Below, piece by piece: positions 351 to 1,212 of a stretch of 5,087 nucleotides of DNA. The notes beneath the pieces were generated by a model, which worked only from the letters and a program-made list of their open reading frames with translations, searched no databases and was not told where the DNA came from. Source of the stretch: a virus. Its lineage: Duplodnaviria > Heunggongvirae > Uroviricota > Caudoviricetes. The stretch lies in IMG/VR virus record IMGVR_UViG_3300000357_000189; one strand, written 5' to 3'. Numbering within the stretch: position 1 is the stretch's first letter; each line of letters begins with the position of its first letter. The position numbers and the translations under genes were made by a program.

Positions 351-446
351 NNNNNNNNNNNNNNNNNNNNNNNNNNNNNNNNNNNNNNNNNNNNNNNNNN
401 NNNNNNTACCCGTAGCCAGAAGAAAATAATTTTTTTCGTGTTTTTT

Positions 447-462
447 CAGTATGCGCATACTG
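447..462. promoter_or_regulatory. Perfect 16-bp palindrome CAGTATGCGCATACTG in the int-alpA intergenic region; candidate protein-binding site
   Basis: The sequence equals its own reverse complement and follows two T6 runs (431-436, 441-446). It has no loop, so it fits a dimeric DNA-binding site better than an RNA hairpin. Confidence 0.3.
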
Positions 463-484
463 GATATGCGAACAGATACAACGT

Positions 485-522
485 GCAACAATGAGCAACA
501 ATGTGGAACAACTACGAACAAG
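485..522 (+). repeat. Four direct repeats with an AACAA core at exact 10-bp phasing
   Basis: AACAA occurs at 487-491, 497-501, 507-511 and 517-521 within gcAACAAtg / agcAACAAtg / tggAACAAct / acgAACAAga. Helical-turn spacing is typical of arm-type or iteron-like recombinase/regulator binding sites. Confidence 0.35.
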
Positions 523-794
523 AGGCGAAAAAGCGTACGGATTTATAAGTAGCTGATTTTTAATGTGTTACTGGTTTTTTGTACACTAGCGAATCACTCT
601 TTAAAGAGCGAGAAAAAAGGCATGGAACAATATTTTATGCCTTTGTATTAACGTGAATTTAAAAGATTTTATTCTTACTGTTTCATTTTCTGTAAATCAT
701 ACATCCTCAGTATTTGCCATTCATCACTCTAGCGGGAACAATACGACACAATAAGACACCTGATGACTCTTTAAGAAACGAAAGGGGGGCAATA

Positions 795-983
795 GTGTTA
801 AGCACTGATCGGTTTATACGTGAAAAAGAATGCGAAAAACTAACCGGCCTTAGCCGTACGTGTCGCTACCGCCTGGAAAAGGCCGGACAATTCCCATCAC
901 GTCGTAAACTTGGCGGTCGTTCCGTTGGCTGGTCTTTATCCGAGGTTCTGGCCTGGAAGGATAGCTGCAAGGCAGTTCATTAA
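795..983 (+). CDS. alpA: AlpA-family (Vis/excisionase-like) small DNA-binding transcriptional regulator, 62 aa
   Basis: GTG start at 795 follows the Shine-Dalgarno AGGGGGG (784-789). Translation VLSTDRFIREKECEKLTGLSRTCRYRLEKAGQFPSRRKLGGRSVGWSLSEVLAWKDSCKAVH matches the AlpA pattern (HTH ...TGLSR.T.Y.L...FP...LG.RSVGW...E...W). The ORF-track start at ATG 714 has no RBS and would give an atypically long N-terminus. Position directly downstream of int is as in CP4-57/P4-like elements. Confidence 0.8.
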   Translation: MLSTDRFIREKECEKLTGLSRTCRYRLEKAGQFPSRRKLGGRSVGWSLSEVLAWKDSCKAVH

Positions 984-1040
984 TCACGCTGGCGGCACGC
1001 AGCCGCCACACATCAATCATCTGAACACAGAGCTATAACC

Positions 1041-1212
1041 ATGAAGATTGAATATACGCCANNNNNNNNNNNNNNNNNNNNNNNNNNNNNNNNNNNNNNN
1101 NNNNNNNNNNNNNNNNNNNNNNNNNNNNNNNNNNNNNNNNNNNNNNNNNNNNNNNNNNNCGTTCGCCCTGGTGAAACTGAAAAACAACAAAATTGGGGTT
1201 TTTCAGGTATAA
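1041..1212 (+). CDS. Possible small hypothetical ORF (about 56 aa) spanning N-run 1062-1159; low confidence
   Basis: ATG at 1041 (MKIEYTP...) runs into the gap. After the gap a different frame reads ...[16 protein letters not shown] with stop TAA 1210-1212, immediately before the hairpin at 1218-1238. The SD is weak (GAG at 1030-1032). Continuity depends on a frame change across the N-run, which is seen at other gaps in this window. Confidence 0.2.

Follow-up and report, generated by a model that had tools for sequence, protein, structure and literature searches.

A phased direct-repeat tract at the predicted alpA promoter of an Escherichia coli phage satellite: candidate operator of an excisionase-type regulator, or else a repeat-rich leader

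Gram-negative phage satellites move virulence and defence genes and interfere with phages, and the locus described here raises the question of what a short series of direct repeats is doing immediately in front of the satellite gene alpA. We examined a 5,087-nucleotide stretch of viral DNA (Caudoviricetes; IMG/VR record IMGVR_UViG_3300000357_000189), referred to below as the window, with features given in window coordinates on the plus strand. On its gene order and its AlpA sequence, the window is an EcCICFT073-type phage-inducible chromosomal island (PICI) of E. coli. The original prediction had taken three repeats upstream of alpA as possible binding sites for an activator of a gene without a convincing promoter. 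The sequence and its relatives point instead to a longer tract, which could be an operator of phased direct repeats serving an excisionase-type regulator, or simply a leader rich in repeats. Our tentative preference is for the operator, on which an oligomerising winged-helix protein, most likely AlpA, would assemble in phase with the helix.

The three repeats were found exactly where they had been placed, GACAC at 745-749 and 755-759 and GACTC at 765-769, with an exact 10-bp period (745-769 in all). Their closeness to alpA also held, with 25 nt between position 769 and the GTG start codon at 795, on which RefSeq agrees. When we viewed the sequence in the same 10-bp register, the triple turned out to be the core of a larger tract of five units (735-779), namely GGAAC at 735, GACAC at 745, GACAC at 755, GACTC at 765 and GAAAC at 775. 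The three perfect and two degenerate units correspond to what is expected of an excisionase-type operator, at least three direct repeats one helical turn apart. The exact pattern GACWC-N5-GACWC-N5-GACWC had one match in the window and none in 200 shuffles of the window, and with one mismatch allowed it extended to GAAAC at 775-779; this was a post hoc test, the pattern having been chosen after it was seen. In a motif-agnostic test (any 5-mer occurring three times at a 10-bp period with at least four of five positions identical), only two places in the whole window were returned, 479-521 and 743-769. The same test on 2000 shuffles of the 365-bp spacer between int and alpA gave a mean of 0.025 hits, and 2.3% of the shuffles had at least one. 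The repeat triple by itself is only moderately unlikely by chance, and we take the tract as real because it is conserved across relatives, not from the chance statistics of the triple.

The relatives comprised 69 loci from viral contigs (AlpA 87-98% identical), 12 loci taken across the identity range in E. coli genomes, and CFT073. The 82 scorable loci gave 22 distinct promoter-proximal haplotypes. We observed the tract at the same position and in the 10-nt register in all 82 loci, and the flanking spacer sequences had been replaced wholesale. Its length, measured from the -10 hexamer to the leader box described below, was 23, 28, 33 or 43 nt, which are steps of whole or half units. The units read GGAAC GACAC GACAC GACTC GAAAC in the window, GACAC GACAC AACGC AACAC AACTC GAAAC in the commonest relative, GACAC GACAC AACCC TCCAC GACTC GAAAC in EcCICFT073, and GACAC GACAC GACAC AACCC TCCAC GACTC GAAAC in locus L082, which has one extra. 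Units of the four main array lineages (A-D) and of the six-unit L082 keep [G/A]AC.C, and the remainder of the unit diverges. Core positions 2, 3 and 5 (A, C and C) carry the majority base in 10, 11 and 11 of the 11 internal units from the four lineages. Mismatches to the majority base numbered 9/55 in the 5' half and 24/55 in the 3' half (Fisher p=0.003, to be read as descriptive since the units are related). A conserved core with a free spacer is therefore seen in the four main array lineages, and the 28-nt haplotypes are out of register beyond the second unit. Coding constraint from an 89-residue open reading frame starting at TTG 714 was rejected, since relatives carry 5- and 10-nt insertions or deletions in it that are not multiples of three. 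A scan for AlpA in species-representative genomes gave 3 loci, too few to use.

Where does transcription of alpA begin relative to the tract? The original prediction had seen no convincing sigma70 -35/-10 pair upstream of the gene. We observed one in a promoter scan, TTGCCA at 714-719 followed after 17 nt by AACAAT at 737-742. The pair was the top position-weight hit and ranked first in each of seven haplotypes tested. It matches the consensus at 9 of 12 positions, and its spacing and conservation are those of a sigma70 promoter: TTGCCA, invariant as TTTGCCA, exactly 17 nt, and (A/C)ACAAT are present in all 22 haplotypes. The 17-nt spacer itself occurs in three unrelated versions, TTCATCACTCTAGCGGG, ACTCTGAATCATCCTGA and TTCCAYAAACACCCTGA. 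In most relatives the -10 hexamer is CACAAT preceded by TGA, giving an extended -10 TG (TGACACAAT), and the window variant has GGG instead. The assignment of the promoter to 714-742 is plausible, and it is conservation that argues for it. From the -10 hexamer at 737-742 we infer a start near 748. The three repeats would then lie at about -3 to +2, +8 to +12 and +18 to +22, and the whole tract, beginning on the -10 hexamer, extends across the predicted start into roughly the first 30 nt of the leader, as far as the conserved box and the ribosome-binding site. A lambda CII-type site (TTGC-N6-TTGC) was also looked for by eye at the -35 region and rejected, the second TTGC being absent in all variants.

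Downstream of the predicted start, a conserved leader box, GACTCTTTAAGAAA, lies at 765-778 and is near-invariant in the alignment; the third repeat forms its first five bases. All 22 haplotypes carry this near-invariant box (ACTCTTTAAGAAA), a G-run Shine-Dalgarno sequence and the GTG. The G-run, at 784-789 in the window, varies from 4 to 7 G among near-identical relatives, a homopolymer length variation beside the start codon. Folding of the leader RNA in ten variants gave z-scores of -0.6 to +0.6 and no shared structure beyond a weak CTCTTT/AAAGGG pairing. Rfam returned no match for the whole element, nor for the spacer at a relaxed threshold. The sequence ACTCTTTAAGAA, compared by eye, resembles the rrn boxA, GCTCTTTAACAA. 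An antitermination site of the boxA/nut kind was rejected, as no boxB hairpin follows ACTCTTTAAGAA in the leader folds and the upstream copy is not conserved in relatives.

These properties bear on the main rival explanation, in which no protein is bound and the tract amounts to a variable-number tandem repeat in a 5' leader that is CA-rich, unstructured and prone to slippage. Its periodicity would be the relic of a duplicating 10-nt unit containing the -10 hexamer, and any function would be at the RNA level, as an unstructured leader or a translational enhancer before the ribosome-binding site. Such a leader would account for the gain and loss of whole units (L082 has an extra GACACAATCC), for a 5-nt sub-repeat, for a tract that lies downstream of the predicted start and lacks significant structure, and for the extremely C/A-rich, G-poor version in EcCICFT073. 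The conserved box, next to the ribosome-binding site, also contains CTTTAAGAA, a sequence of the phage T7 gene 10 leader. However, neutral decay should hit the ten positions of the unit alike, and positions 2, 3 and 5 are nearly invariant with the 3' half free. Nor would a function in the RNA explain why the period is 10 nt, and the tract has been kept in 82/82 loci though the spacers around it were replaced wholesale. We consider a leader without a bound protein a doubtful account of the tract, if the most serious of the competing ones.

Could alpA be expressed by read-through, as had been proposed? In the int-alpA spacer we observed a conserved 12-bp hairpin (AAAGGCAT...ATGCCTTT) at 616-644, with an A-tract before it and a T-rich stretch after it, in folds of 20 variants; some relatives show compensatory GGCGT/ACGC changes. 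The hairpin looks like a terminator, possibly a bidirectional one, between int and alpA. Just upstream, at 595-610, lies a palindrome, CACTCTTTAAAGAGCG, of which compensated versions occur in relatives (CACGCTTTAAAGCGTG). Its left half and the bases beside it repeat part of the leader box ATGACTCTTTAAGAAACGA (762-780) in direct orientation, and this partial copy lies at 593-611. A second promoter-like pair, TTTAAT-17-TACACT (-10 at 582-587), is conserved; it was set aside, since its score was below the shuffled median and it would fire into the hairpins.

According to the original prediction, alpA would depend on an activator bound at the repeats or on read-through from int. The first half of this stands in part, an activator having been published for the EcCICFT073 homologue. 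Read-through from int is unlikely because the terminator-like hairpin at 616-644 is conserved. As classical upstream activator sites, the repeats are in the wrong place: they cover about -3 to +22 of the conserved pair, and between the last one and the Shine-Dalgarno run there are just 14 nt, with 25 nt to the GTG. This leaves no room downstream for a core promoter and a leader, and for this reason we do not regard them as upstream activator sites; their position is not that of a class I or class II site. That alpA has no promoter of its own would agree with the weak -10 hexamer (4/6), the missing TG extension in the window variant, and the activator dependence in EcCICFT073. With a conserved -35/-10 pair just upstream of and overlapping the repeats, and with a conserved terminator-like hairpin behind it, this model is very unlikely.

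The regulation of alpA itself has been studied in the sister elements. A promoter-alpA::lacZ fusion of EcCICFT073 was activated by AlpA in trans (Fillol-Salom et al. 2018, PMC6092414), mitomycin C induced the alpA reporter only in lambda or phi80 lysogens (PMC6092414), and over-expression of AlpA led to excision and replication of EcCICFT073 (PMC6092414). In EcCIMP1, alpA induction is helper-dependent and partly AlpA-dependent (PMC11773190), and helper phages induce alpA transcription independently of SOS (PMC6092414, PMC11773190). The two possibilities that had been raised for the window, AlpA autoregulation and a helper-phage signal, are thus already published for EcCICFT073, which has a homologous int-alpA spacer, and EcCIMP1 is alike. 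Helper-phage induction, packaging and transfer have been published only for EcCICFT073, EcCIEDL933 and EcCIMP1. We mapped the EcCICFT073 fusion primers and observed that the reporter fragment begins within int, ends near codon 20 of alpA and includes the whole spacer. The alpA region of EcCICFT073 is like that of the window in having homologous DNA, TTGCCA-17-CACAAT, the box, the ribosome-binding site and the tract in a 10-nt register. It differs in that the window has one unit fewer (23 vs 33 nt from the -10 hexamer to the box) and lacks the TG extension, and the -35/-10 spacers of the two are not the same. In the literature that we searched, there was no paper mapping the alpA start, operator or AlpA sites, or the phage inducer in these satellites. 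The biology of alpA is therefore already published for the sister element, and the tract, the promoter pair and the arrays are offered here as candidate cis-elements.

Which sites would AlpA use? Just downstream of int, we observed an array of five ACAA(C/T) units with an exact 10-bp period (478-527). Nineteen distinct units, taken from four haplotypes, all keep the ACAA core unchanged, and EcCICFT073 has six units. Bases 407-1060 of the window match the E. coli EcPF5 chromosome with 100% identity, and we scanned the 24.6-kb EcPF5 locus (L001 coordinates) for any 4-mer occurring at least four times at a 10-bp period. Phased arrays were found solely inside the satellite, and none in shuffles. 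They were ACAA x5 between int and alpA (window 478-521), TTGT x4-5 just upstream of int (L001 10694-10737), and GTGAC x4-5 at the right end of the element (L001 21564-21607). The last of these, which follows the final gene of the element, consists of five G(T/C)GAC units exactly 10 bp apart. A TTGT x3 array is present on the attR side (L001 21884-21910). The ACAA core, in the opposite orientation (TTGT), is thus phased in both att arms of the EcPF5 element, and the same was seen in EcCICFT073.

Each TTGT array borders directly on a doubled motif, GGTGTAGTCAC-T-GGTGTAGTCA (arms L001 10694-10769 and 21884-21948), which resembles the lambda integrase arm-type consensus, AGTCACT. EcCICFT073 has identical TTGT arrays but another doubled motif (GGTGTAGTTAAT), another integrase and another insertion site. 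Because the doubled motif changes with the integrase and the TTGT arrays do not, the pattern fits a division in which an excisionase-type protein (AlpA) would use TTGT/ACAA and the integrase would use the doubled motif as its arm site. The 478-527 array has the att-arm core, as the GAC.C tract does not, and it is the best candidate for an AlpA site upstream of alpA, stronger than the GAC tract. The two are not wholly separate, in that the first two tract units (735-754), and only these, contain ACAAT in the same orientation and phase as the distal array, and some relatives have GACACAAY units within their distal array. Locus L088, with a distant AlpA allele, has TTGTTCG x3-4 in both att arms and CGAAC x3 upstream of alpA. 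Its int-alpA spacer holds two arrays, AATATC x4 and CGAAC x3 (2039-2071 and 2258-2290), the second of which shares the att-arm core. Phased arrays seem to be a general feature of int-alpA spacers. The CP4-57 alpA of K-12, with a 43-nt spacer and no comparable array, was uninformative.

Proteins of the family of AlpA (TorI, Xis, Apl, Cox, RdfS) bind short cores one helical turn apart. In the mechanism that we tentatively favour, a small winged-helix protein, most likely AlpA itself, would polymerise head to tail along one face of the DNA, each tract unit serving it as a half-site. Occupancy of the tract would modulate open-complex formation or promoter escape at the alpA promoter, acting together with the stronger distal ACAA array (478-527). 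The tract would thus form part of an AlpA auto-regulatory loop, by which the satellite is switched on after the first push from the helper phage. We prefer this mechanism because the periodicity is beyond chance, the register is conserved and the pattern is that of phased sites; because the first two units share ACAAT with the distal array, whose core recurs phased in the att arms; and because L088 repeats the same logic with another core and AlpA belongs to a winged-helix family. The clearer ACAA array likewise combines a constant core with spacers that vary, the core returning once per helical turn. The habit of the family (TorI, RdfS and the sites of recombination directionality factors) and the activation by AlpA of an EcCICFT073 fragment containing the tract are further reasons. 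Direct repeats one helical turn apart are what PMC7498355 describes, in its account of such sites, for recombination directionality factors.

Among the systems to which the tract can be compared, 186 Apl at pR-pL, the P2 Cox boxes and the lambda Xis sites X1/X1.5/X2 are short direct repeats one helical turn apart, as here, and each is bound by a small winged-helix protein that forms a head-to-tail polymer at promoters and att sites, in the descriptions of these sites given in PMC7498355 and PMC3936717. In those systems, binding has been demonstrated and the arrays mostly repress the promoters that they cover, whereas the present tract is known from sequence, and the att-arm core here (TTGT/ACAA) differs from the GAC.C of the tract. 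TorI, at attL of prophage KplE1, uses the 5-nt cores GTTCG, GATCG and GTCCG arranged in blocks that overlap the intS promoter (PMC2951348). It is like AlpA a small, excisionase-type protein with sites that overlap a promoter, and the AlpA family annotation is also given to excisionases that resemble Kapi1 Xis, itself identical to the TorI structure 1Z4H (PMC11773190). The core sequences differ, however, and TorI represses intS whereas AlpA is reported to activate its own gene. RdfS and RdfS1271 of Mesorhizobium integrative conjugative elements are oligomeric winged-helix recombination directionality factors that also activate transcription (PMC11963761). Their sites, about 170 bp upstream of the target gene and directly before the start codon over the ribosome-binding site (PMC11963761), resemble the distal array plus the tract. 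They differ in that no consensus motif was found for RdfS, which has an extra N-terminal helix, and in that host and element type are unrelated.

Several observations weigh against AlpA, or any protein, being bound at the tract. The att arms carry TTGT/ACAA and not GAC.C, which leaves GAC.C without an independent link to AlpA, and some core positions vary inside one lineage (GACAC vs GACCT, GACCC and GACTT). Unit number changes by duplication and deletion of repeats, as replication slippage without selection would give. The 5-nt deletion of the 28-nt haplotypes breaks the register between the promoter-proximal units and the box, and strict phasing of the whole tract is, on these sequences, not required. 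The promoter score of 10.9 is about the median best hit in the shuffled spacer (10.1). The EcCICFT073 reporter fragment cannot separate the tract from the distal array, and the literature searched held no footprint, electrophoretic mobility shift or chromatin immunoprecipitation data for the tract. Finally, sites over -10, +1 and +30 usually repress, and the published effect of AlpA is activation. In a more speculative version, AlpA would activate its own gene from an unconventional position. A filament nucleated on the ACAA array would extend to, or load on, the units at -14 to +30, and would act by counter-silencing or by helping opening or escape, not by recruiting RNA polymerase. We regard this version as improbable.

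The helper-phage signal could also be read by a protein other than AlpA. In this reading the units would be bound by a helper-phage inducer, a satellite protein or a host nucleoid protein. We found points in its favour in the induction of alpA by helpers without SOS, in EcCIMP1 partly independently of AlpA, in the difference between the GAC.C core and the ACAA/TTGT core of the att arms, and in a further phased array of the GAC type, GTGAC x5, which the element carries at its right end. The GTGAC array is, however, absent from EcCICFT073, no candidate protein is known, and induction of alpA by several different lambdoid and P22-like helpers argues against a single sequence-specific phage factor. 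An activator would also be better placed at a strictly conserved block, TTCTGTAAA, at 689-697, about 56 bp upstream of the predicted start, which was invariant in an alignment of 24 haplotypes. This block is a candidate site for the helper-phage inducer. A P2 Ogr / P4 delta-type motif (TGT-N12-ACA) was looked for by eye at about -55 and rejected, since only TTCTGTAAA is conserved there, without dyad symmetry.

The protein of another predicted operator set in the window was also considered. Three 11-bp palindromes, GTGTT(C/T)AACAC, lie at 1795, 1811 and 1836, and chance would be expected to give none. A promoter-like pair, TTGACG-17-TAAATT (1806-1834), is overlapped by them where a YlcI/YnfO-like gene and the rightward operon diverge. 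In EcCICFT073 two copies of GTGGGCCACAC take the place of the 1795-1846 palindromes, which are probably an immunity-type operator set with alleles. The GTGTTNAACAC operators share an AACAC half-site with the tract, but they become GTGGGCCACAC in EcCICFT073 and the tract persists, so that there is no co-variation; the protein of these operators (1795-1846) was rejected as the tract protein on this ground. Taken with the points above, binding of the units by a protein other than AlpA is unlikely.

We also considered whether the repeated ACAAT/CACAAT in the initially transcribed region could act on RNA polymerase directly, through sigma70-dependent pausing and the loading of an antiterminator, as with lambdoid Q or the AlpA of Pseudomonas aeruginosa. 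CACAAT at 747-752 would lie at about -2 to +4, like the pause element of P. aeruginosa alpB (-1 to +5), and L082 has a second CACAAT exactly 10 bp after the -10 hexamer. The P. aeruginosa protein at the alpB promoter (PMC9371919) shares with the present case its name and a -10-like hexamer at the start region. It is, however, much larger, with eight helices and a Q-like ring at the RNA exit channel (PMC9371919), and it is not detectably related in sequence. Its DNA contacts reach up to residue 142 and its ring is N-terminal, whereas AlpA here has 62 residues, and a search of solved structures with the 62-residue AlpA did not return it. Its binding element lies between -35 and -10, and the corresponding spacer, where loading would be expected, is not conserved here but exists in three unrelated versions. 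A scan of 407-1060 showed no intrinsic terminator between the promoter and alpA, only weak ones inside the gene. A loading site of the Q or P. aeruginosa AlpA type was rejected on protein size, the lack of detectable homology and the unconserved spacer, and pausing of this kind is the least probable of the explanations that we weighed.

The identity of the element was assessed on the gene and on the locus. In the window, alpA spans 795-983 and encodes 62 residues from a GTG start (RefSeq coding sequence WP_000953272.1). The protein matches the Phage_AlpA winged-helix family (Pfam PF05930) over residues 5-54 with E=5.4e-17 and 61.8 bits (cut-off 21), and is a member of that family. The closest solved structure by sequence is 8c3t, an 'AlpA family phage regulatory protein' (E=2e-6). 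Directly 3' of the alpA stop codon, at 989-1006, is a GC-rich hairpin, GGCGGCACGCAGCCGCC, without a T-run, which has a counterpart in EcCICFT073. The integrase gene, int, ends at position 429. In EcPF5 the element measures about 11.4 kb and splits tqsA, and its flanks are a 9-bp direct repeat, ATAACAGCA (L001 10611 and 22022), as expected of the site-specific insertion of a PICI. Its genes follow in the order tyrosine integrase, 62-residue helix-turn-helix gene, Icd-like, YlcI/YnfO, DUF4222, primase, single-strand-binding protein, capsid-like and head-decoration-like, all within about 11 kb and without tail or lysis genes, which is the gene order of an EcCICFT073-type PICI. EcCICFT073 itself (CFT073 positions 1377930-1388654) shows the same order. 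Its AlpA is identical to that of the window at 58 of 62 residues, and it is from this identity and the shared gene order that we assign the window to this type. The insertion sites differ, the window element lying in tqsA and not, as for EcCICFT073, next to roxA. Sequence related to window 407-1060 was found in 877-904 of 5,426 complete E. coli genomes.

The gene alpA is the master switch of Gram-negative phage satellites, which are widespread, and the promoter type described here occurs in 904 of the 5,426 complete E. coli genomes. As a means of control, a phased docking track is nothing unusual, but in the literature that we searched none has been mapped in satellites of this type. Our studies offer as candidate cis-elements the promoter pair, the unit-variable phased tract over the predicted start, the ACAA array shared with the att arms, and the block at about -56. 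These elements bear on how the satellite senses its helper phage. If AlpA were indeed to activate its own gene by a filament that extends over the tract, the number of units, which ranges from 3 to 6 in E. coli satellites, would set induction thresholds, and satellites would differ in how readily a helper phage can trigger them.

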